Counted from the stretch's first letter, positions 6,482 to 19,527 are shown. The stretch is 32,000 nt of DNA from Candidatus Thorarchaeota archaeon (GCA_048882505.1 JBHLRO010000022.1:1-32000); one strand, 5' to 3'. The notes: a model not told the origin generated them from the sequence alone. Numbers and translations: made by a program.

Positions 6482-6527
6482 GAGTACCCCTGAGTACCCT
6501 TTATATGAGTACCCCTGAGTACCCTTT
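6482..6527. repeat. Two perfect 21-bp direct repeats GAGTACCCCTGAGTACCCTTT (6482-6502, 6507-6527), each containing two GAGTACCC units
   Basis: Read directly. Octamer starts at 6482, 6492, 6507, 6517. Confidence 0.95.
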
Positions 6528-7458: not shown

Positions 7459-7669
7459 GAGGAGGGGACCTCAAGAGAATGGACACGTTACTTTGGCAGC
7501 ACTTTTTTCTTGACATTTCTTGACATTGCAGAACGTCTATAATCAAGAAGATTCGTTATGCGAGTGGGCATTTAATGAAGACCAAATATGAGAAAAATAT
7601 CAAAAAGAAACCTCAGCAGACGGTGTCTATGGAATTCGTTCCACAAATATATCGCCTTGGGACGTTACT

Positions 7670-8917
7670 TTGAACAATTCTCGACTTAATGACACTAAAG
7701 TTCCCTCCAAAAGGATCCCAATTCTATTTCGTCATTCGGTGCCCGAAATCCCAACAACTACGTATGGAGCCTTCGCATTATACAAATATCCAGCAAAATT
7801 TATACCTCAGGTAATTGCGTACGTTTTAAAGAATTTTGCTGAGCCTGACATGAAAATATTCGATCCTTTTGCAGGATACGGTACTGTTGGAGCCGTGTCA
7901 CGGGTATATGGATTTGATTATGAATTATGGGACCTCAATCCTTTACTTGGAACTATCCATGACACCATATTGTCAAAAGAGTCCAGTCTTAATTTTACTA
8001 GGCTATTAAATGAGCTGAAGCATTCCTCAGATGAGTTCATACCGAAATGGAAGAACCTCGATTACTGGTTTCCTGAAGAATTTCTTTCTACTCTTATAAA
8101 AACTTGGGGTTATATTCATACTCTTCCCAAAAACAGTAGTTTACAGAAAAAACTGACGATTCCTATGATTAATGTAACCCGTTACTTCTCCTGGTGCGAT
8201 GAAAAAGTTCATAAATTATACAAGTCTAAATATTCAAAAAAAAAGGTTGACGAACTTTTACAGGGGAATTGGAAATCAAGATTCTATTTAATGCTGGAGA
8301 AGGAGATTCGAGATCTTCTGGCCAAATTGGAGGAATATGAATTTTTAAAACCAAAAGCCGTGAATTACACGATAAGACATGGCGTAGATACCCTCGAAAC
8401 GGCTTTGGATGATGAAAAACATATTCTTCTCACGTCTCCACCGTATTTACAGGCCCAAGAATACATTCGATCGACGAAATTGGGTTTATATTGGTTAGGA
8501 TATGATGATGCAACGATTAGGGCCCTAAGCAAAAAAGAAATCCCCTATCGATCCGTTGATAAAATTAGGATAAAATCAAATCTATATTACGAGTGTAAGG
8601 ATAAGATAGATAATGAAAAGCTAAAGGAATTGTATGAGAGGTATTTTCACTCAATCTTGAAAGCTATTACAAATCTGGCACAGAAAATCAGTGATTATTT
8701 ATGTATTTTCATCGGTCCCGCCTCTATACGAACCGTGCCAGTTCCTATTGACGATATTATTGTAGAACATATGCAAGAACACGGGTGGATTCACGATGTG
8801 ACCTTCATCGACACAATAGTTGGCCATGTGATGTTTAAATCGCGAATAAATCCCGCCACTGGCCTTAAAAATAAGCGAATTCAATATGAACATCTTGCTA
8901 TTCTTAAGAAAGAATGA
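7670..8917 (+). CDS. DNA amino-methyltransferase, alpha motif order, probably N4-cytosine (SPPY)
   Basis: Motif X YKYPAKFIPQ and motif I FDPFAGYGT near the N-terminus; motif IV TSPPY (~8432-8446) after the variable region. TTG start is uncertain. Confidence 0.85.
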   Translation: MNNSRLNDTKVPSKRIPILFRHSVPEIPTTTYGAFALYKYPAKFIPQVIAYVLKNFAEPDMKIFDPFAGYGTVGAVSRVYGFDYELWDLNPLLGTIHDTILSKESSLNFTRLLNELKHSSDEFIPKWKNLDYWFPEEFLSTLIKTWGYIHTLPKNSSLQKKLTIPMINVTRYFSWCDEKVHKLYKSKYSKKKVDELLQGNWKSRFYLMLEKEIRDLLAKLEEYEFLKPKAVNYTIRHGVDTLETALDDEKHILLTSPPYLQAQEYIRSTKLGLYWLGYDDATIRALSKKEIPYRSVDKIRIKSNLYYECKDKIDNEKLKELYERYFHSILKAITNLAQKISDYLCIFIGPASIRTVPVPIDDIIVEHMQEHGWIHDVTFIDTIVGHVMFKSRINPATGLKNKRIQYEHLAILKKE

Positions 8918-8932
8918 TACAGGCTTTGAGAT

Positions 8933-11524
8933 ATGGATACCAGCAGTTCAAGCGCTCATATTGCGAAAGAACGCTTCTATAATGCCCTAAGAGATCTCTT
9001 TATTGGGGCAGATGTTGAGGGGATTTCAGGTTACATACACTTCATGAAAATAAAATCTAGATATTTTGAAAATATATTTCGTAAGTTACACCAGGATATC
9101 GATAACAAGCTCATGGAATTTCCTGAATTTCAGGAAGAATTTTTTGATAAAATATACAGTTTTTTCAAGCGATATTTCAGTGAAACGGGATCGGTTTACT
9201 TTAGGCGAACACCCTTCGGCGAACAAGTCTTTGACCGTGTTTACACAGATCAAAAAGATGTATCATTATTCTGGAAAACCCATATGTTATACTATGTAAA
9301 AACCGATTTCATTCTAAAGAGTATGGAAGTAACCATTGATAATCAGACGTTCTTCTTCGATGTATCTGGTTTAGAATATAAGGAAGGTTGGGAAAAGCGT
9401 CATTTTGTGTATTCTTTACAAGATATTGATGAATATGGTCGGATAGTATTCAAGGTACAATATTCACGAAGGGGAAAAAAAACCAAAATAAACCCGATCT
9501 TGAAAGATCTGAAGGAAACCGAAGCTTTCGCCGGGGACGAAGAACTCTTGGAACGGGCGTTCCGAGTTTTCGAAAAGCAAAACGAAGTCGATTACTTCAT
9601 TAATAAAAATCCACGAAAATTTCTCCGTGAACAATTTAATCTCTGGTTATATCAGTATATGTTTGATGAAGGGACAAACTTCAGTGAAACAAGAATTAAA
9701 CAATTGAAGCTAATCCAATATGCTGTATATAGTATTATCGATTTTATTTCACAGTTTGAGGAAGAAGTGTTGAAGATATGGCGCAAACCAAAATTGTCAA
9801 TAAATAGCAATTATGTTATTACTCTGGATAGAATTATAGAGAAGAAAGGGGGCGCCAATGTTATCGGCATGATAGTTGGTCATTCAGGATTACACCGACA
9901 GTTGAATGAATGGAAAACTCTGGGCATAGTCTCGGATAAAACGCAGCCTGAGCATTTATTTCATAAAAGCGGCACAAAAATCCAGAATCGATATCGGTCC
10001 TTGCCACTTGATACACGATATTTCAAGGATTTAGAAGAATTAATCCTTTCTCTTTTTTCTAATGGACTGGATAGGGAATTAAATGGATGGCTCATTAAGT
10101 CTGAAAATTGGCAAGCTTTGAACACGGTCATAAATAAGTTTAGAAACAAGATAAAGTTGATATATATAGATCCTCCATTTAATACTGGAACAAACGAGTT
10201 TACTATGTATATAAATCGTTTTTTGGATTCGGCTTGGCTAACAATGATGGAAAACCGACTTCAACTTGCTAAAGAATTCCTACATCCCTCTGGAAGCATC
10301 TATGTTCGAATTGACCACCACGCAAATCATTACGTACGGATGCTCTTAGAAGATATATTTGGAAGTGATAACTTCCGAAACGAATTAATTATCAAACGAA
10401 CCGAAGGGAAAAGTAGGGTCGAGGGAAAAGCATTTTCAGTCGGAACTGAATCCTTGATGTTTTTTTCCAAAGGATCAGAAACCAAACTGAAAATCCCAGT
10501 AAAAAAGACTGATCTCAGCGTGCAAACGCAAGAGTTCCTTTCTCGATTGAAGAAGGTAGAACCAGAAGTTTATACTCATGTAAATGATCTGATAGATGAA
10601 ATTTTCTGGCTCGATCTTGATCATCGTCCTGGTTATCGATCAACGTCTACGGAAATTTCAGTGTTCGGTCAGAAGTTCAGGGCTCCTGAGGGGAGACATT
10701 GGCTTCTTAACCAGAAAAGGATTGACGAAGCAATAAAACAGGGACGTGTAAGACTCTCATGTGACTCATGCGGATCCAAGATTCAAAAGGATTCAGTTAA
10801 ACATGATGAATCATGTCGAAATCCCCAACACAAGGTCCAGATTTACTACGCTGAAGAAAGTGTCACCTCAAATTGGACTGATCTCCAAAGTTATGCACAG
10901 TCGAACTTTTGGGGAAAAAAGTTTTCTACAGAGAATGCAGAGGTTTTATTGCAGAGAATAATACAGGCCGCAACTGAATTAAAAGAGGATATCGTTCTTG
11001 ACTTTTTCCTCGGATCAGGAACGACCATCGCCGCAGCTCACAAATCTCAAAGAAAATGGATTGGGATTGAGATGGGAGAACATTTTTACGACATCATTCT
11101 TCCACGAATGAAGACGGTTCTTGCGGGTAAGCAATCTGGTATTTCACAAAGTGTAAAATGGAAGGGTGGTGGGTTTTTCAAGTACTTCGAGCTGGAGCAG
11201 TTCGAGCAAACGCTAAGAAAGGTGAAATACGAGGATAGTGATCCATTGGAAGCGTTCGGTGCTGATCTCTATTCCCAGTATATTTTCCTAAAGGATTTAA
11301 AACTCCTCAAAGCTCTGGAGATCGATTATAAGGCTAATAAGGTTCACATCAACTGGGATCGTTTATATGCAAACGTCGATATACCTGAAACACTATCACA
11401 TCTCTTGGGCCGTAAGATTAAGACTATTACCAAGACGGATTTCGAATTTGAAGATGGCTCAAAGTTTGATATAACAGAGCTCGATTACCAATTGGTAAAG
11501 CCGTTACTATGGTGGGAAGGATGA
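8933..11524 (+). CDS. mod: Type III RM Mod subunit (beta-class N6-adenine MTase) with long N-terminal extension
   Basis: LIYIDPPFNTG (motif IV) precedes the TRD and VLDFFLGSGTT (motif I). N-terminal FDKIYSFFKRYFSETG...LFWKTHMLYYVKTD resembles the long Mod proteins I recall from Helicobacter/Campylobacter-type loci. Abuts res (TGA-ATG). Confidence 0.88.
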   Translation: MDTSSSSAHIAKERFYNALRDLFIGADVEGISGYIHFMKIKSRYFENIFRKLHQDIDNKLMEFPEFQEEFFDKIYSFFKRYFSETGSVYFRRTPFGEQVFDRVYTDQKDVSLFWKTHMLYYVKTDFILKSMEVTIDNQTFFFDVSGLEYKEGWEKRHFVYSLQDIDEYGRIVFKVQYSRRGKKTKINPILKDLKETEAFAGDEELLERAFRVFEKQNEVDYFINKNPRKFLREQFNLWLYQYMFDEGTNFSETRIKQLKLIQYAVYSIIDFISQFEEEVLKIWRKPKLSINSNYVITLDRIIEKKGGANVIGMIVGHSGLHRQLNEWKTLGIVSDKTQPEHLFHKSGTKIQNRYRSLPLDTRYFKDLEELILSLFSNGLDRELNGWLIKSENWQALNTVINKFRNKIKLIYIDPPFNTGTNEFTMYINRFLDSAWLTMMENRLQLAKEFLHPSGSIYVRIDHHANHYVRMLLEDIFGSDNFRNELIIKRTEGKSRVEGKAFSVGTESLMFFSKGSETKLKIPVKKTDLSVQTQEFLSRLKKVEPEVYTHVNDLIDEIFWLDLDHRPGYRSTSTEISVFGQKFRAPEGRHWLLNQKRIDEAIKQGRVRLSCDSCGSKIQKDSVKHDESCRNPQHKVQIYYAEESVTSNWTDLQSYAQSNFWGKKFSTENAEVLLQRIIQAATELKEDIVLDFFLGSGTTIAAAHKSQRKWIGIEMGEHFYDIILPRMKTVLAGKQSGISQSVKWKGGGFFKYFELEQFEQTLRKVKYEDSDPLEAFGADLYSQYIFLKDLKLLKALEIDYKANKVHINWDRLYANVDIPETLSHLLGRKIKTITKTDFEFEDGSKFDITELDYQLVKPLLWWEG

Positions 11525-13699
11525 ATGGAACCGGTCAATCCCCTGTTACAAAAAATGGTGGAGAACTTAGATTTTGATACTCTCCCTTCTCACTGGCGCG
11601 CTATCTGCACGTCTTCCTTTTCCAAGCGTATAAGCCTGTATGGTTATCAGCTTCAGGCGCTTAAAAATATAATAAGGGGCTTATATTTGTTCTTCAAGAT
11701 CGACAGAGCTGATAAGAGCCAGTTTTATTATAGATACCTAGATTATGGGCTGACTCCAGATACTGAAAGTTGTCTCAATCTCCAGATTGCTACCTACGAC
11801 ATGGCCACCTCAAAAATCATTCAGGAATACCTCTCCCCGGTTCAAGGAGAAGTTCTGTTCCAACGAATTCTCCAACGAGCCGCATTTTGGATGGCAACAG
11901 GATCAGGTAAAACCCTTGTCATCATAAAACTAGTTGAAATCTTGAAAAATTTAATGGATATGGGAGAGATTCCGAAAAAAGATATTCTAATCTTAACACA
12001 CAGGGATGATTTACTCACCCAGATAGTGAATCACGTTAACGAGTTCAATACATCTTTAATGGAAAAGGGTTTTTCCATTGCTTTGATAAACCTACAAAAT
12101 TACGAGAAATTTAAAAGAGAGGGACTATCGCCATTTTTGGACACCGCGAGAGTATTTTATTATCGCTCTGATCTCATTGGTGATGATCAGAAGGAGAAAA
12201 TCGTAGATTTCAGAAATTATGATATCAACGGCAATTGGTACCTAATACTCGATGAGGCACATAAAGGAGATAAGAATGAATCCAAACGCCAACTTTACTA
12301 CTCCATACTATCACGAAATGGCTTCTTGTTTAATTTTTCTGCGACATTTGTGGATCCTCAAGACATAGTCACAACCGTTTACAATTTTAATCTTGAGAAA
12401 TTCATAACCCGAGGTTATGGAAAACACCTTTTGCTACTTCAGGATGAATCGGATATATTTCGGGAAAAATCTGACTTCAATACAAAGGAAAAGCAGAAAA
12501 TCGTCTTGAAGGCATTGATTCTTCTAACATACATTAAGAAGATAGTTATAAACATCACACAAATCCAGGAGGATACATATTGGGAACCGCTAATGCTAAC
12601 GCTGGTGAATACGGTTAACCTTTCCAGAAAACAGCGAAGGCCAGATTTGATCATGTTTTTCAAGGAAATAGAAGAAATAGCGAAGGGGGATGTAGATTCA
12701 ATCTTATATGGCAATGCTATCAATGAGTTAATTCGGACAGAGGAATCCCATTATCTTTTTGAAGATACGCGCCTCCAGATTGATTATCAACTAATTAAGA
12801 CGATTTCAATCCAAGACATATTATTCCATATATTTAATTCAACCGAATTCAGTGCAATCGAAGTAATCACAATTCCAGATAGTCGAAAGGAAGTAATATT
12901 CAAGCTAAAATCAACAGATAAACCTTTTGCGTTAATCAAAATTGGAGACGTAACCAAGTGGATAAAGGAAAACCTTCCTGGATATGAAATAATTGAAAGT
13001 TACGATGACAGGAGTATCTTCTCTGATATCGAAAATCGGAACGATATTAGCTTGCTAATGGGTTCTAGAGCATTCTATGAAGGGTGGGATTCAAATCGTC
13101 CTAATCTGATTATGTTTATAAATATTGGAAGGGGTATAGAGGCAAGAAAATTTGTAATGCAAAGTATTGGGCGGGGTGTTCGAGTAGAACCGATTATGGC
13201 TAAACGACGCCGATTAAAAAGCCTTTATGAGGTAAAAAAGGATAATAACCTATATCCACAAATGAAACACTTAATAGAACCTTTAGAAACTCTTTTCATT
13301 TTTGGGACTAATCGTGAAATTCTCAAACAAGTCTTTGAAACTCTAAAAATTGAAAAAAAACCGAAAAAAGTCCACGAACCCGAAGATGTGGATGTCAGCG
13401 CAGCTCCAAAAAGGAAAAAATCCAGAAAGAATGAGATTATACCCAGCAATTTAAGAAGGTTAGAGATCCCAGAATCTTATTTTCGGATCCTATCAGAGCT
13501 ATTTCAATCGTGTGATGATCGCATTCTAATTTCCATAAGCGGTCTATCTTTAAATTCCGTAGAAAAGATAAGACGCTACCTTAAAGAACCTTCCAAATAT
13601 TTCTTAAGAACGAGAGATCCGATAACTGACGTTCCTGCAAGAATGGTTATTAAAATCGTGGTCAACCATTTTCGTGAAGATTCAAACGATTTTCTTTAA
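11525..13699 (+). CDS. res: Type III RM Res-like SF2 helicase/ATPase, apparently lacking the C-terminal PD-(D/E)xK nuclease
   Basis: MATGSGKT (Walker A), LILDEAH, FSAT, YEGWD, QSIGRGVR are all present. Ends at 724 aa with no PDF...DPKG-type nuclease motif. Confidence 0.82.
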   Translation: MEPVNPLLQKMVENLDFDTLPSHWRAICTSSFSKRISLYGYQLQALKNIIRGLYLFFKIDRADKSQFYYRYLDYGLTPDTESCLNLQIATYDMATSKIIQEYLSPVQGEVLFQRILQRAAFWMATGSGKTLVIIKLVEILKNLMDMGEIPKKDILILTHRDDLLTQIVNHVNEFNTSLMEKGFSIALINLQNYEKFKREGLSPFLDTARVFYYRSDLIGDDQKEKIVDFRNYDINGNWYLILDEAHKGDKNESKRQLYYSILSRNGFLFNFSATFVDPQDIVTTVYNFNLEKFITRGYGKHLLLLQDESDIFREKSDFNTKEKQKIVLKALILLTYIKKIVINITQIQEDTYWEPLMLTLVNTVNLSRKQRRPDLIMFFKEIEEIAKGDVDSILYGNAINELIRTEESHYLFEDTRLQIDYQLIKTISIQDILFHIFNSTEFSAIEVITIPDSRKEVIFKLKSTDKPFALIKIGDVTKWIKENLPGYEIIESYDDRSIFSDIENRNDISLLMGSRAFYEGWDSNRPNLIMFINIGRGIEARKFVMQSIGRGVRVEPIMAKRRRLKSLYEVKKDNNLYPQMKHLIEPLETLFIFGTNREILKQVFETLKIEKKPKKVHEPEDVDVSAAPKRKKSRKNEIIPSNLRRLEIPESYFRILSELFQSCDDRILISISGLSLNSVEKIRRYLKEPSKYFLRTRDPITDVPARMVIKIVVNHFREDSNDFL

Positions 13700-13820
13700 A
13701 TCAGAACAACCTTACCCTAGGAGTTAGAACCGCTCTCGGTTTTATTAGAAAGGCAATGTATTTTACCTGTCATAAGATTAGTACGGGCTATCAATAGAAT
13801 TTAACTGGAATTGTTGTGAA

Positions 13821-15332
13821 TTGAGTATAGATGCATTTTATCAGCATTTAAACAAGGGTAATCTTAGCGAAGCAGATCGTATAGCTGCCATGCTCTACGG
13901 TGAAGAAAGAGATGAAGCAGAACTGGTAATGGATGTATATAAATTAAATAACTTTGGCCCAGGACCAGTGGCGCCTGTTGTAAATCGGATCCTCTCAGAA
14001 GGCCAGAATATTCCGCGTATCCATAGTATGGCCAGAATTGTATCAGCAGGAATTCTTTTTTGGCAAGCCAAATACGAAAAGGCCCAGGCGGAACTGGAAA
14101 TAGCCGAAAATTTGTTGAAAATGGCATCAACGACTTCAGAAAAGGCAACTCGGCATATAAGGGCGATCCTTCTTTTTTTTAAAGGAGCTATTCATCACGG
14201 CTTAATCGATAGTAATGATGATTTGGTTCTGAAAAATTACCAGAGGGCGCTGGAAATTTGTTTTGAGGAGGGATTTCCTTTAAAGATTCTAGTGGCTACT
14301 ATTTACAATAATATGTCCGTCTTTTATAAGAGAAAGGGAGATTGGCCGTTAGCAATAGAATATAATCAAAAAATTCTAGATCTCTGCGATAGGATCGGTA
14401 ATCGAGCAATTCAATTATATCCCCTAATTCAGTTAGGAATTATTCAGTTCGTTCAGGGCGAGCTAGCATTATCTCAAGAATTATTTCAAAAAGGATTACA
14501 TCTTTCTGAGCTATATCCTGATAAACGAGGAACTGCATGGGCTTTGGAGAATTTGGGCGCGGTTTATCAGAGTAAGGGGGAGTTCCAAAATGCTTTGGAT
14601 TGTTATCAACGGGCTCTTGAGTTGACTCAATCAATAAAACTTGCGGGAGGTGCTGATCTTTCAGCTATCTATTATAGGCTATTCCAACTTCATTTGGACA
14701 TGAAAAGTTCTAGCCAGGCACGAGAATATCTGAAAAAGCTGGAGGAGCAGAGTCAGATTGACCAAAGTCTAATTGCACAAATTCATTTTCAAATGGCAAA
14801 GGCCCTATTATTGAAAACCAGCCAGCGTTTCAAAGATAAAGCACAGGCGCAAGATCTTTTTAGAACCGTTATGGAGAACAAAGGAACGAGCGAAGGTATA
14901 AGGTTCCTGGCGATGCTGCATCTATGTGACTTACTATTACAAGAGGTAAAGGTTTCTGGTGAAGAAAAATTGCTTGTGGAGGCCCAAACGATAACGGACT
15001 ACGTCATCGAACAAGCACAAGTTTGGAAATTTGCTCCCGATCTTATTAACACCTTCATGTTGAAGGCAAAATTCCTTTTAGTTACCGGCGCTGCACAAGA
15101 AGCGTCTAATATACTTAAAGAGGCGCTTCAAATTGCCAAAGATAGGGCATTAATTTATCTAGCTGATCAGGTTAGAAAAGAACAGGAAAACCTGAAAGAT
15201 GAGCTTAAAAGGTGGAAGGAATTTACGGAACGGAATGCCTCCTTACAGGAACGCCTTGCTTTTGCTGAACTGGAGGATTATCTTCAAATGGCCATCAAAA
15301 TGCGTGATTTGAAGGCTGATCCTTCAAAATAG
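13821..15332 (+). CDS. Tetratricopeptide-repeat protein
   Basis: TPR units IYNNMSVFYKRKGDWPLAIEYNQKIL, LIQLGIIQFVQGELALSQELFQKGL, ALENLGAVYQSKGEFQNALDCYQRAL. Helical C-terminus. TTG start is uncertain. Confidence 0.88.
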   Translation: MSIDAFYQHLNKGNLSEADRIAAMLYGEERDEAELVMDVYKLNNFGPGPVAPVVNRILSEGQNIPRIHSMARIVSAGILFWQAKYEKAQAELEIAENLLKMASTTSEKATRHIRAILLFFKGAIHHGLIDSNDDLVLKNYQRALEICFEEGFPLKILVATIYNNMSVFYKRKGDWPLAIEYNQKILDLCDRIGNRAIQLYPLIQLGIIQFVQGELALSQELFQKGLHLSELYPDKRGTAWALENLGAVYQSKGEFQNALDCYQRALELTQSIKLAGGADLSAIYYRLFQLHLDMKSSSQAREYLKKLEEQSQIDQSLIAQIHFQMAKALLLKTSQRFKDKAQAQDLFRTVMENKGTSEGIRFLAMLHLCDLLLQEVKVSGEEKLLVEAQTITDYVIEQAQVWKFAPDLINTFMLKAKFLLVTGAAQEASNILKEALQIAKDRALIYLADQVRKEQENLKDELKRWKEFTERNASLQERLAFAELEDYLQMAIKMRDLKADPSK

Positions 15333-15383
15333 TGAACATCTTCCTATAAATCCTGTGAAAAAAGGAAAATTAATGCTTCAAGT

Positions 15384-17798
15384 CTATTCGTAAAGAATAG
15401 CGCGGCTCAGTTTTTGCAGGATTTCCATTTTTTGGTTCGTACTCCCTTTTCTTCTAACTTTGGAAACTTCTTTTACCAATAATCGGTGCAGCTCCAAGCT
15501 GGGATCATATTCGGGTAGCTTCAGATTCTTTAGTAACTTTGTCGTTGTGGAGGTACCCAATTTTTTTGCAGATACGAATCTCCGAACTGGAGGCGAATTG
15601 ACCAAGCCTGCAATAAAAAGCAATTCCTTTTTGCTCGAAAAAGAGGTGTACATTACCTTATTGTTGGGTACTAAAGGTTTTACCCCTAGGTAACTATCTC
15701 TTGTTGGTACAACAATAGAGCAACGAAATTCACCCATTTCAGGCCAAAATAACTTGTATGGAGAGAATAAATCGTTGTTAACGTTGTAGATTGAATAAAA
15801 AGGATCATCGGGCGTAAAGTATTTTTGTACCCCAGGCCGTCCACGTAGCTCCTGCTTAAACGTTTTTAGATAGGAATAGGTTGCGGGGTACTTCTTTCGC
15901 ATTGTAGCTACGTCGATCCCCCTCCTCGTAAACGGATTATTCGTCACGATTACGTGATAGTTATCTGTGGATCGGATATTCCATAATCCAATATCTCGGC
16001 CACGAACGAGCGGAAAAAGAAGATCAGGCTCAATCTTTGCCTGAACAATCTTTACTTTTTTCCTTCCTATATTGCCACGATTCTCAATCAATACATTTCC
16101 GTCCCCAGATCTTCCGAAAATCCGAACCCAAAACACACCGTTCAACCAAGTGCAAATACCTGCTTTACCTAAATACTTGGAATGGCCTCTCAACTTTTTT
16201 ATGAGTACAGGAACTTCTTCGTCAGAAAAAGGGTAAATTATCCACGGTGATTCCGGCCTTTCTCCTGAAGGTTCCGCTAAGAGTTTCATATTACTGATAG
16301 ATGCTCTAACGTGTTCTAATGTTTGTGTATTATCAGCCAGTTCAATTTTGTTATTCTTGCTCCAAATACGGTAATTTACTGGGTAAATAGTTCTTTTTCC
16401 TTTAGTACAATAAACGATAGCAGTTCGGGTTACGGCTTTGAAAGGTTTGAGACTGACCATATCGTCAACCAAATCGATGCTGAAATACTGTTCATTTCCT
16501 AAAGAAAATTCTCGAAATCCTTCCCCTGCCCTCATCGATTGGAACACATTTTGATTAATTAGAAAAATTAACTTCCCTTTCTTCCTAAGATAGAGATCAA
16601 TGCATCTATGAAGAAAAAGCATAGAAAGATCTTTTTTCCCTCCGCCAAGTCTCGCTTCCGAACCTCTTTTGATTGAAAACAGATTGTATTGTTTCCAGAG
16701 GTTGGATGTTTCAGTTCGATAATTTTTTGGCAGGTGTTCCCATCCTACCCATGGCGGGTTACCCAAAACATAGTCGAAACTACCCGCCAACCCTTTTAGT
16801 CGCGGATTTACAGCATCTGATAGGAAAATAGGAAGATTCTTTTTTTCTTCTCCGCATGGTATAATATCAGAAACCGCAATTAGATAGTTTGCTCGGGCGG
16901 TAGTTACAGCCATTGGGTTAATATCAATTCCAACGATCTTTTCTTGAATCAACTCAAATAGCTCTTCCTCCTTAGTAGATGCCCTAAGCTGCTTCTTCAG
17001 CTTATTTATTACATGAATAATAAATGTTCCGGAACCACACGACGGGTCTAGTACTCTGGTCTTCTCTCTGATCTCAACTTGATCAGTAATATATTCAGCA
17101 AGCCAATTGGGAGTATAATATTCACCAAGATCGTGCCGAATCCCTTTGGGTATCAGACTCTCATATAGTTCCCTAAATAGATCTAATGCTTCATAAGAGT
17201 CTGAACCTGCACATAATGGTCGATATTTATCCAAGGATTTAAGCATTTCAAAAATTTTATTCGCCAGGCCGCCTGACCATTCATCCGTAAACCACCAATA
17301 GAAGTTATCAGTTACCATGTCAACTAGATCTGAATATTCATTAATGTATCCAGCAGGTACACTTTCCAATTGTTCTCGCAATTCAGAGGGGTTTTTACCT
17401 AATAAATGACGTAAATATCCATGGTCATCCGAACTTCCTTTCCAAAAAACCACTTCGGACGCCAACAATGTCAGTATCAAAGAATAGTACGTATGAATAC
17501 AGAAAATGATTTCAGTACAGTTGAGATTTCTCTTTTCAAATCTCGTTGCCAGACTTAGCATACTTTTATTAGGGGATTGGAAATTATATCGGCAGAAACG
17601 GGTAAGGTGCTTTTTCCAAGCACTGAACCTTTTCAATGTACGTGTTTTAACAGGGTTCTCAATTGCTTGTAACAGACATGAAACCACATTTGTACAATTG
17701 GAGGATCCCAGCCCAAAATCATTGATAAGACTCAGTGAGGAATGGGGGTGTCGATCTGAAACGACCATAATTAAACAACATCGTACTGGTTTAATCAC
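15384..17798 (-). CDS. Gamma-class N6-adenine DNA methyltransferase (Eco57I/type IIG-like M+TRD) with no recognisable nuclease domain
   Basis: LGEYYTPNWLA (X), VLDPSCGSGTF (I), GIDINP (II), LGNPPW (IV) and a C-terminal TRD region. IHTYYSLI helical motif. GTG start overlaps the upstream TGA (GTGA at 17795-17798). Confidence 0.87.
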   Translation of the reverse strand: MIKPVRCCLIMVVSDRHPHSSLSLINDFGLGSSNCTNVVSCLLQAIENPVKTRTLKRFSAWKKHLTRFCRYNFQSPNKSMLSLATRFEKRNLNCTEIIFCIHTYYSLILTLLASEVVFWKGSSDDHGYLRHLLGKNPSELREQLESVPAGYINEYSDLVDMVTDNFYWWFTDEWSGGLANKIFEMLKSLDKYRPLCAGSDSYEALDLFRELYESLIPKGIRHDLGEYYTPNWLAEYITDQVEIREKTRVLDPSCGSGTFIIHVINKLKKQLRASTKEEELFELIQEKIVGIDINPMAVTTARANYLIAVSDIIPCGEEKKNLPIFLSDAVNPRLKGLAGSFDYVLGNPPWVGWEHLPKNYRTETSNLWKQYNLFSIKRGSEARLGGGKKDLSMLFLHRCIDLYLRKKGKLIFLINQNVFQSMRAGEGFREFSLGNEQYFSIDLVDDMVSLKPFKAVTRTAIVYCTKGKRTIYPVNYRIWSKNNKIELADNTQTLEHVRASISNMKLLAEPSGERPESPWIIYPFSDEEVPVLIKKLRGHSKYLGKAGICTWLNGVFWVRIFGRSGDGNVLIENRGNIGRKKVKIVQAKIEPDLLFPLVRGRDIGLWNIRSTDNYHVIVTNNPFTRRGIDVATMRKKYPATYSYLKTFKQELRGRPGVQKYFTPDDPFYSIYNVNNDLFSPYKLFWPEMGEFRCSIVVPTRDSYLGVKPLVPNNKVMYTSFSSKKELLFIAGLVNSPPVRRFVSAKKLGTSTTTKLLKNLKLPEYDPSLELHRLLVKEVSKVRRKGSTNQKMEILQKLSRAILYE

Positions 17799-18391
17799 GA
17801 GTTCTTTAAATACATGCAGAACGATTGATTACGTACTGGAAGCGGTAAGGCATGAAATTGGGAAGAATGGACAAGCCAAAGATCAAAATTTTTGAAAAGC
17901 TCCTTCCAATCATCTAATTTTCGAAAATTGAATGGGATGGGCATTTGAGCTGAAAACGTTCGGTTTTCAAGTAAATCGAAAAATTTTAGGAAGTAGTGCT
18001 CTAACCTATTAGTAAAGACATCTTCAACAATTATTAGCTTTTTTCTGCTGACTCGTATCATTTCTTCTAATATATTATTAACATTGGGACAATGATGAAG
18101 TACAAAAACACCTATGCATACATCAAACGAATTATCCGGAAATGGAATCGGTTCATTGCCATCATAAAGAACCAATGGGACACCTGGAACACGATATTTT
18201 GGGTATGCCAAGATATCCAAACCTTGGATCTCTACACCAGTTTTTTCTTGAATTCGAAGTGAAACATATCCATCCCCGTCGCCAACGCTCAACATCGACT
18301 CACCTGATTCCAAGAAAAACCGAATATGCTTTAAAATCTGGTTTGCTCTATAATTTCGAATTGGTTCCGCAATTTTTGTGAGTAGAGACAA
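17795..18391 (-). CDS. Class I SAM-dependent methyltransferase (Methyltransf_11-like, non-DNA type)
   Basis: MLSVGDGDG SAM loop, GLDI, IPFPDNSFDV, VLHHC...LEEMIRVSR. Confidence 0.87.
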   Translation of the reverse strand: MSLLTKIAEPIRNYRANQILKHIRFFLESGESMLSVGDGDGYVSLRIQEKTGVEIQGLDILAYPKYRVPGVPLVLYDGNEPIPFPDNSFDVCIGVFVLHHCPNVNNILEEMIRVSRKKLIIVEDVFTNRLEHYFLKFFDLLENRTFSAQMPIPFNFRKLDDWKELFKNFDLWLVHSSQFHALPLPVRNQSFCMYLKNS

Positions 18392-18734
18392 GCTTTTGGC
18401 TCCCGTTAATGTCCCATTGTTTGTGCGAATGTTAAATCAGCACAGATTCAGTTCCTTCTAAGTCTTTTTCTTCGGGTTCCAGATCATAATGGATAACTTC
18501 GATTTGGAATGCTCATAGTGTCCTCTTCCATTGGATTCTCTTATTCGAGAATAATGATTCATTTGAAGGAGGAAATTGACATTTTGTCGGTTTAGGAAAT
18601 GAGATGAACCTATAATGGCATTTTTGCACTGAATATGACAAATAGCTTTCGACAGACCTTCATTCATTAAAATACGGATTTTTCGCAAGCACATTCTTAA
18701 TCCTTCTACAAAAAAAAAACGTGGTGTAAATAAA

Positions 18735-19172
18735 ATGGTACGGATAGTTCCCTATTTAACCGTAAAAAATGGCAAGCAGGCTATCGAGCTGTATAAAACG
18801 ATCTTTAACGCTAGACTAGTAGATCATGAGGCATTTTCCCCTGAGACAACAGCTGACTTTAGCCTTCCTAAAGATTTTGATTATGCGAATTCTACGATGC
18901 ATGCTGAATTAGACATTGGAGGGTCAGCCATTTTCTTATCTGATAATGTTGGACCTCCTTTCGAGTCATCCACTCAACTAGTAGAAATTGTTCTGGACAT
19001 CGACACCAAAGAGGAAATTGAATTTATTTACGCAAAAGTCCAAGAAAGTGGGTGTAAGATTAAGATGGAGTTACAACAGACTTTTTGGGGGGCAATATAT
19101 GCACGATTCTCTGATCCTTTTGGAATCGGTTGGCAATTGAATTATGATTTACCTTCCGAAGAGTCTAAGTAA
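18735..19172 (+). CDS. VOC/glyoxalase superfamily protein, PhnB-like
   Basis: PYLTV...AIELYKTIF, MHAELDIGG..IFLSD, MELQQTFWGAIYARFSDPFGIGWQLN. Confidence 0.9.
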   Translation: MVRIVPYLTVKNGKQAIELYKTIFNARLVDHEAFSPETTADFSLPKDFDYANSTMHAELDIGGSAIFLSDNVGPPFESSTQLVEIVLDIDTKEEIEFIYAKVQESGCKIKMELQQTFWGAIYARFSDPFGIGWQLNYDLPSEESK

Positions 19173-19527
19173 TCCTGATACTTCTATCCAAAAGATATAT
19201 TCACCTCTTCCTTTTCAGTTTCCTTTTGTTTGGTATGTTGAATCACTAGCTAGGAAAAAATTGGCTCGCATATCACAAGGTACGATTGTACAGTAGTGAT
19301 TGGAATTAATGCTTGGATTTATGGTAATCTTTTACAGCTGTTTTCGTAAGTAAAGGTTTGAGAAGTTATCTTCCACCTTGCCATCAATAATCCTCAGTAA
19401 TCTATATCGGTGGAAATCCCGCTTTAGCCACTTATACAGAATATCTGATTACTTAGGTGAAATCAAACAGATCATTATCAGTTGATTCGTGGTTCTGGGT
19501 AGAAAGAAATCTGTAAAGTGGAAAATC

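Follow-up and report, generated by a model that had tools for sequence, protein, structure and literature searches.

Gene content of the island

The DNA considered here, called the window, is a stretch of 32,000 nucleotides (nt) from the assembly of a Candidatus Thorarchaeota archaeon (GCA_048882505.1 JBHLRO010000022.1:1-32000; assembly G000, completeness 94.6%). Its subject region is an island of six genes flanked by metabolic genes. The island encodes three DNA methyltransferases (MTases) of different classes, among them a Mod protein like the one found in restriction-modification (RM) systems of Type III, together with a Res protein that consists of the superfamily 2 (SF2) ATPase part only, a tetratricopeptide repeat (TPR) protein, and a methyltransferase dependent on S-adenosylmethionine (SAM). 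The nearest database records of island proteins, as seen for Res and gammaMT relatives, are named Heimdall-group Asgard. An earlier note, made from the DNA alone, had described six open reading frames (ORFs) with alpha, beta and gamma motif orders, intact catalytic and SAM motifs, and no recognizable nuclease. All six ORFs lie where that note placed them, and a motif scan finds all of the motifs (Table 1).

Table 1. Features of the island, in window coordinates. TRD, target recognition domain; aa, amino acids.
Feature	Position	Strand	Description	Length	Motifs and matches
alphaMT	7670..8917	+	alpha-class DNA MTase	415 aa	FxGxG 7859-7885; SPPY 8435-8446; PADLOC MTase_II PDLC03322 full length, E 6.7e-24
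Mod	8933..11524	+	Type III-like, beta class	863 aa	DPPF 10169-10180; FLGSGTT 11006-11026; PADLOC MTase_III PDLC03638 full length, E 1.7e-254
Res	11525..13699	+	SF2 ATPase part only, Type III-like	724 aa	Walker A 11900-11914; DEAH 12251-12262; motif VI 13160-13183
Spacer 3' of Res	13700..13820		at the position of the nuclease domain (~250 aa) of canonical relatives	121 nt	no remnant
TPR protein	13821..15332	+	all-helical superhelix	503 aa	Pfam TPR_12, TPR_MalT
gammaMT	15384..17768	-	solitary gamma-class N6 MTase with TRD	794 aa from Met11; longest ORF to 17798	NPPW 16749-16760; motif I 17022-17048
SAM-MT	17795..18391	-	class I SAM-dependent methyltransferase, small-molecule type	198 aa	Pfam Methyltransf_11/25/23

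The alpha order of alphaMT is given by FDPFAGYGT at residues 64-72 followed by SPPY at 256-259, and the beta order of Mod by DPPF at 413-416 followed by FLGSGTT at 692-698. In gammaMT the order is DPSCGSGTF (251-259), then NPPW (347-350), with the TRD behind. Res carries GSGKT at residues 126-130, DEAH at 243-246, SAT at 272-274 and QSIGRGVR at 546-553, and matches Pfam family PF04851 (ResIII) with an E-value of 3e-15. Mod matches PF01555 (E 5e-38), and its relatives in the Protein Data Bank (PDB) are EcoP15I Mod, 4zcf, and 6k0w. The genes for alphaMT and Mod are 15 nt apart and those for Mod and Res 0 nt apart, the Mod stop codon abutting the Res start codon; with gaps this small, the three genes look like a single operon (7670-13699).

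PD-(D/E)xK, PLD and GIY-YIG patterns are absent from all six island proteins by motif scan, and searches of the six against Pfam, PADLOC and NCBIfam return no match to a nuclease family, which bears out the earlier description of an island free of nucleases. No restriction endonuclease partner for alphaMT occurs at the locus. The architecture is not an assembly artefact, because the same layout is found in an independent metagenome-assembled genome of another species of the genus (G016) and in a JGI metagenome contig (L100).

Res and its missing nuclease domain

The canonical system of this family pairs a Mod of about 865 aa with a long Res. It occurs in Methanocaldococcus, in Thermococcus, at locus L014, and across about 66 complete loci of named assemblies; the survey of named genomes comprises the best 80 loci, of which about 66 are complete, and about 3 of these 66 have a short Res. 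Over its whole length the window Res aligns with residues 1-724 of the Methanocaldococcus Res, a 977-aa protein, and it stops there. Its database relatives, at 40-54% identity, are mostly about 985 aa long and carry an additional Pfam family, PF27151 ('YagJ'); the window Res ends, at residue 724, exactly on the boundary of this domain. About 35 residues precede the first helicase motif, and the approximately 125 residues after motif VI align to the linker of the long form. PADLOC models for Res match the window protein weakly (78 bits).

The extra C-terminal parts of 40 long Res relatives were aligned and used to construct a profile, A3. In this alignment the elements of a PD...DxK motif (P167, D168, D185, K187) are invariant or nearly so. 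A model of the domain has a pLDDT of 89, and exhaustive structural comparison of its residues 113-253 by VIA-align finds matches almost exclusively to PD-(D/E)xK nucleases, with Z scores of 6.5 for Bax1, 5.8 for Cfr10I, 5.8 for Can2 and Cdn1, and 5.3 for Bse634I. Further structural matches include NgoMIV, BsaWI, VRR_NUC, Vsr, TnsA and T7 endonuclease I. A Foldseek search of the PDB with the domain model gives no match at E <= 0.001, and a profile search of PDB sequences returns noise only. Because Z scores of 5-6.5 are middling, the assignment rests on fold and motif taken together; on these grounds the C-terminal domain of canonical Res is a predicted PD-(D/E)xK nuclease.

Profile A3 finds this domain nowhere in the assemblies G000 and G016, while detecting it at E-values of 1e-85 to 1e-96 in three Asgard genomes used as positive controls. 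The domain has therefore been deleted, rather than split off or moved elsewhere. The nuclease domain of the window Res is removed cleanly at the domain boundary.

The same truncation recurs across the family. Of 171 Res proteins placed in a tree, 15 are short and about 90% are long with the extra domain, and well-supported branches force at least 8 independent losses of the nuclease domain. The ends of the short forms lie no more than a few residues from one common boundary, right after a conserved 'HF' motif, and in an alignment with 7 short forms among its members Walker A, DEAH, SAT and motif VI do not vary. Several of the short clades are deep; the clade of the window Res also holds a complete 711-aa gene at 67% identity. 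A pair of short Res proteins from KSB1 bacteria are 72% identical, with a ratio of nonsynonymous to synonymous substitution rates (dN/dS) of 0.16 at dS > 1, and the Mods of that pair have dN/dS 0.12. Among 400 Asgard genomes, 7 short Res copies (in 6 genomes) stand against 6 long ones, small counts from related lineages. A Methanolliviera contig (L032:5711-8468) has a split Res, with a helicase ORF of 763 aa and, after it, 146 aa left over from the nuclease domain, which has the look of a transitional stage towards the short form.

At many canonical loci mod and res are separated by 1-3 kb, and guest genes often occur there; the gap in Methanocaldococcus (L012:5767-6999) holds a DUF553 transglutaminase-like gene. 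A separate Asgard locus (G028:C1:2534687-2541574) has, after a long Res, a piece of Mod, a free-standing second copy of the nuclease domain (a 188-aa ORF whose matching part is interrupted by one TAG), and a Mod broken by a stop codon, and appears to be rearranging or decaying.

Short Res genes often occur in operons with more than one MTase. A homolog of alphaMT (39% identity) heads another short-Res operon, on a Nanopusillaceae contig (L009:1526-12704), where one 728-aa short Res is surrounded by alphaMT and three Mod paralogs. These Mods share 73-100% identity outside the TRD and 15-42% within it, the signature of different specificities, and the locus resembles a nuclease-free methylation operon of several specificities. 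A short-Res locus of a Lokiarchaeon (L008) has two Mods. The arrangement of one Res with extra Mods or an alphaMT was not seen in any long-Res locus examined. In a census of Asgard Mod-only versus Mod plus Res loci, the candidate Mod-only matches are more distant and shorter Mods.

Companion proteins, synteny and selection

Mod begins with a domain of about 390 aa that is a feature of the family and occurs also in systems with a long Res. Across 36 family members it contains the charged motif FDVSxLExKxxxEKR (residues 142-156, window 9356-9400), in which F142, D143, K150, E154 and K155 are invariant and S145 and R156 nearly so, and a second motif, EVDYFINK (residues 218-225, window 9584-9607), in which E218, D220, F222, I223 and K225 are invariant. 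The domain is modelled with moderate confidence (pLDDT 74) as a bundle of helices with an inserted beta element. Its only structural matches are to helical bundles, in the PDB, and, in the ESM Atlas, to N-terminal parts of other N6_N4 MTases; there is no match at E <= 0.001 when Foldseek is run against the PDB. These structure searches, made with the whole domain and not with the beta insert separately, return no nuclease. A profile of the domain has no similarity to the family nuclease domain and finds only noise among PDB chains, and Mod has no nuclease match in Pfam. The earlier note had expected one N4-methylcytosine (m4C) and two N6-methyladenine (m6A) motifs from the three MTases; the methylation product of Mod in this family could be either. 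The mod gene contains no simple-sequence repeat array, its only such tract being an A8 run that is identical in G016.

For gammaMT the most likely start is Met11 (ATG at 17768, giving 794 aa), which matches the database record; a stop codon interrupts the upstream extension in a congener. With this start, the 4-nt overlap with the SAM-MT gene is probably not real, and it is not conserved, being replaced by a gap of 12 nt in G016 and of 30 nt in L100. The protein matches Pfam families N6_Mtase (PF02384), Eco57I (PF07669) and MmeI_Mtase (PF20473). The best stretch for the PADLOC IIG profile runs over residues 338-776, corresponding to profile positions 603-1043 of 1100. An Asgard clade of 788-794 aa proteins, uniformly without a nuclease, covers 97% of gammaMT, and relatives of about 1100 aa match only its C-terminal 55% or so. 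Over residues 11-215 the likeness is to MmeI_hel and ISP_coupler domains and to N-terminal segments of stand-alone MTases (TM 0.88-0.91); this part of the protein is a helical coupler and not a nuclease. Genes of about 290 aa upstream of gammaMT relatives were considered as hidden restriction endonucleases and rejected, as they encode archaeal pilin-like proteins.

The two remaining proteins are neighbours and not demonstrated components of the DNA-methylase units. The ESM Atlas model of the TPR protein consists of TPR from residue 1 to 501, with TM 0.83 to Asgard TPR clusters, and has no catalytic domain. All full-length relatives among the matches listed are Asgard, at 35-57% identity. The protein belongs to a multi-copy Asgard family, with 3 paralogs in G000 and relatives in unrelated contexts. 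SAM-MT has weak UbiE/MenG-like matches in NCBIfam and none in PADLOC. Because congeners that have no gammaMT carry it at 65-69% identity, and because the overlap with gammaMT is not conserved, we read SAM-MT as a backbone gene outside the DNA-methylation system. The earlier note had entertained all six genes as one undescribed system, possibly with the TPR protein or SAM-MT as a partner. The distribution of SAM-MT and the paralogy of the TPR protein show the set to be composite, and in L100 SAM-MT is much better conserved than its neighbours (87% versus 57-62%), which speaks against a partnership.

Recurrence of the gene set and order in relatives, which the note had proposed as a check, is complete in G016 and partial in L100. 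In G016, all six ORFs are intact and in the same order, within 16 kb of 90.6% nucleotide identity. Compared between the two genomes, the six island genes have dN/dS values of 0.11-0.22 (dS 0.16-0.41), including 0.19 for alphaMT, 0.13 for Mod and 0.11 for Res; the flanking genes fall in the same range. Identity is not uniform. Over window positions 7800-16600, covering alphaMT, Mod, Res, TPR and gammaMT's 3' half, it is 0.92-0.97 (G016 locus L007), versus 0.77-0.90 for the flanks and the 5' half of gammaMT; dS is 0.16-0.21 in this block versus 0.42-0.70 outside. The raised identity and low dS suggest that the block was recently recombined or transferred between the two lineages, one of its breakpoints lying within gammaMT.

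The L100 contig has the order of the window, from the C-terminus of a short Res (ending '...NHFHENIQYLS*') through TPR, gammaMT and SAM-MT to a glyoxalase gene. Identities to the window proteins are 57% for TPR, 62% for gammaMT, 87% for SAM-MT and 76% for glyoxalase. When L100:1-7560 is compared with window 13300-19200, backbone genes are 76-87% identical, and the Res tail, TPR and gammaMT only 42-62%. In this comparison the island genes thus diverge, or are exchanged, more rapidly than the genes beside them, which reverses the pattern between G000 and G016. An 'empty site' was not found in congeners, where, outside G016, synteny is lost beyond one flanking gene.

A 78-codon ORF at 18458-18694 was rejected as not conserved, since it carries stops in G016. 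Two sets of short repeats lie near the island: a 21-nt direct repeat in two exact copies, GAGTACCCCTGAGTACCCTTT, whose starts are 25 nt apart (window 6482-6527), upstream of a hydrolase gene, and a 10-nt tandem repeat, TTTCTTGACA, present twice (window 7506-7527) within the spacer upstream of alphaMT. Both may be operator or promoter elements.

Probable methylation without restriction, and the alternatives

We consider the region to be, probably, a restriction-free DNA-methylation island of separate units, in which the Res ATPase serves Mod. The operon alphaMT-Mod-Res (unit A, 7670-13699) and gammaMT on the minus strand (unit B, 15384-17768) are separate units. A cryptic nuclease was looked for in Res, gammaMT and Mod, where the earlier note had seen one danger to such an interpretation, and, with the N-terminal domain of Mod searched as a whole, none was found. 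Since synteny and purifying selection are both present as well, restriction-free methylation, one of the possibilities raised in that note, is the best reading of the locus.

Under this reading, unit A would derive from a widespread Type III-like RM family whose Res normally ends in a PD-(D/E)xK domain. With that domain removed at its boundary, the unit A complex would no longer cut DNA; judging from what is established for EcoP15I, Type III cleavage is impossible without a PD-(D/E)xK domain. Mod and the extra alphaMT would still methylate DNA, the Res ATPase having been kept because of its service to methylation. Since Mod, the Res ATPase and added MTases have all been retained, and since short-Res operons tend to be multi-MTase operons, the most economical view is that Mod requires Res for methylation or is strongly helped by it. 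Res would most likely be indispensable to Mod, loading it onto DNA, activating it there or allowing it to slide. Unit B would be an independent, solitary gamma-class N6-adenine MTase with a TRD, in which a nuclease either was never present or was lost long ago. We infer an active Mod, a requirement for Res in methylation, and an output that consists of epigenetic marking or protection and not of defence; such protection could be directed against incoming systems of the same specificity.

A precedent for dependence on Res comes from DthLIII and FnoB1III, thermophile Type III systems that produce m4C, for which Mod alone gives 0% methylation and Mod plus Res 64-91% (Murray et al. 2021, PMC8259958). 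By analogy, a dependence of this kind would explain why an ATPase-only Res is retained. Construct sizes for these systems imply a mod gene of about 2.6 kb and a res gene of about 3.0 kb, as in the family of the window, a weak hint only, because PleII has a mod of similar size and does not need Res. The Res proteins of DthLIII and FnoB1III differ from that of the window in having a PD-(D/E)xK motif, and their species are not among the best 80 loci of the named-genome scan.

The island could instead serve defence without a nuclease of its own, Mod and the Res ATPase sensing unmethylated foreign sites and a BREX-like block or an effector acting in trans providing the response, with the TPR protein as a possible adaptor. 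Several findings fit. The TPR gene lies 3' of the short Res gene, on the same strand, in G000, G016 and L100. Its product diverges in L100 (57%) as island genes do and unlike the backbone (76-87%), and the block of raised identity between G000 and G016 takes in alphaMT, Mod, Res, TPR and half of gammaMT. The Res ATPase, moreover, is under purifying selection. We nevertheless judge such a defence function unlikely. Neither the TPR gene nor any other common downstream gene is found at the other short-Res loci, where the neighbours are housekeeping genes or further Mods. The TPR paralogs occur in unrelated contexts, the protein lacks a catalytic domain, and the nuclease domain of the family is encoded nowhere in the assembly. 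PADLOC reports only RM-type models, together with weak likeness of PbeA, PglX and mad2 to generic helicase or MTase cores. A broader version of the same idea, that a Mod-Res ATPase senses unmethylated foreign DNA and stops it uncut in a BREX-like manner, by ATP-driven clamping or sliding or through a recruited lineage-specific partner such as the adjacent TPR protein, would make non-nucleolytic Type III immunity a state that has arisen repeatedly and is common in Asgard archaea; we regard this as very improbable.

The earlier note had also raised a hotspot of independently disarmed RM systems. As an account of how the Res truncation originated, this is right. Taken as decay, it would make the truncated Res and the MTases dead remnants, and some findings fit. 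The truncation is a loss of function as far as restriction is concerned, the frameshifted L032 locus shows a helicase ORF beside a nuclease remnant, and the island is patchy within the genus. As an account of the present state of the locus it is very unlikely. The note had taken absence of synteny together with relaxed selection as the mark of a decaying graveyard; what is found is intact ORFs in two species, every catalytic motif in place, dN/dS of 0.11-0.22 over dS values of 0.16-0.41, and a gene order conserved in L100, so that decay is poorly supported. Elsewhere in the family, the short form has been kept at 67% identity within the window's clade, and at 72% identity with dS > 1 in KSB1 bacteria. 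That the locus still restricts, by means of a cryptic nuclease in the N-terminal domain of Mod, is highly improbable: the domain has no known fold match, a model of moderate confidence with a beta-sheet insert not searched alone, and the invariant residues D143, K150, E154, K155, E218, D220 and K225, but it is shared with canonical systems whose Res already has a nuclease, its structural matches are confined to helical bundles and N6_N4 MTase N-termini, and neither profile nor Pfam comparisons relate it to a nuclease.

Several observations weigh against the methylation reading. It leaves unexplained why the TPR gene adjoins the short Res gene on the same strand in three lineages, and the N-terminal domain of Mod combines invariant acidic and basic residues with a fold that has no match. 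Res is found in only 2 of the 22 genomes of the genus, making the island a patchy, accessory one. Short-form branches of the Res tree are longer than those of their long-form sisters in all four of the sister comparisons (4/4), which could reflect partly relaxed constraint.

Type III systems are machines made of a methylase and a helicase-nuclease, and loss of restriction in them is known mainly from res knock-outs in pathogens. The island shares with the Type III RM systems EcoP15I and EcoP1I (Mod2Res1; PDB 4ZCF) the order of mod and res, a beta-class Mod, and an SF2 Res with ResIII motifs, and canonical members of its family carry the C-terminal PD-(D/E)xK domain. It differs in that its Res has no nuclease domain and so falls outside the definition of the type by its nuclease, in the extra N-terminal domain of about 390 aa in Mod, and in the addition of alphaMT to the operon. 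In the phasevarions of Haemophilus influenzae and Neisseria, res is inactivated and Mod is kept in a non-defence role (Fox et al. 2007, PMC1976455), a case of Type III systems that have lost restriction, retain Mod as a methylase and serve as epigenetic regulators. There, res is mutated and mod is phase-variable through simple repeats (PMC1976455), whereas the window Res is cleanly shortened, with its ATPase motifs kept under purifying selection, and mod has no repeat tract.

The gammaMT protein resembles the MmeI-family Type IIG/IIL enzymes and stand-alone Eco57I-type gamma-class MTases in its helical coupler, its gamma core with NPPW, and its C-terminal TRD. It differs from MmeI-like Type IIG enzymes in lacking the MmeI_N nuclease domain, only about 200 residues preceding the MTase. 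BREX, DISARM and MADS likewise combine DNA MTases with helicase-like ATPases and no standard restriction nuclease. PADLOC and NCBIfam find none of PglZ, BrxC, BrxL, DrmA, DrmB, DrmC, mad1 or mad3 to mad8 in the window, and the PADLOC matches to such systems on the island are weak or partial, PglX and mad2 through the MTase core and PbeA through the helicase core. We found no description of an ATPase-only Res kept under selection in open-access literature text.

In this family, then, the nuclease domain alone has been lost, with the ATPase kept under selection, in at least 8 events spread over archaea and bacteria. Of the Res copies found in Asgard archaea, about half lack the nuclease domain (7 short versus 6 long, in 400 genomes). 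The short forms often occur with several methylases of different specificity, which suggests that the Res motor has a part in methylation as such. Annotations of Asgard loci as 'Type III R-M' should be viewed with caution, as some of these loci may be restriction-free epigenetic writers.

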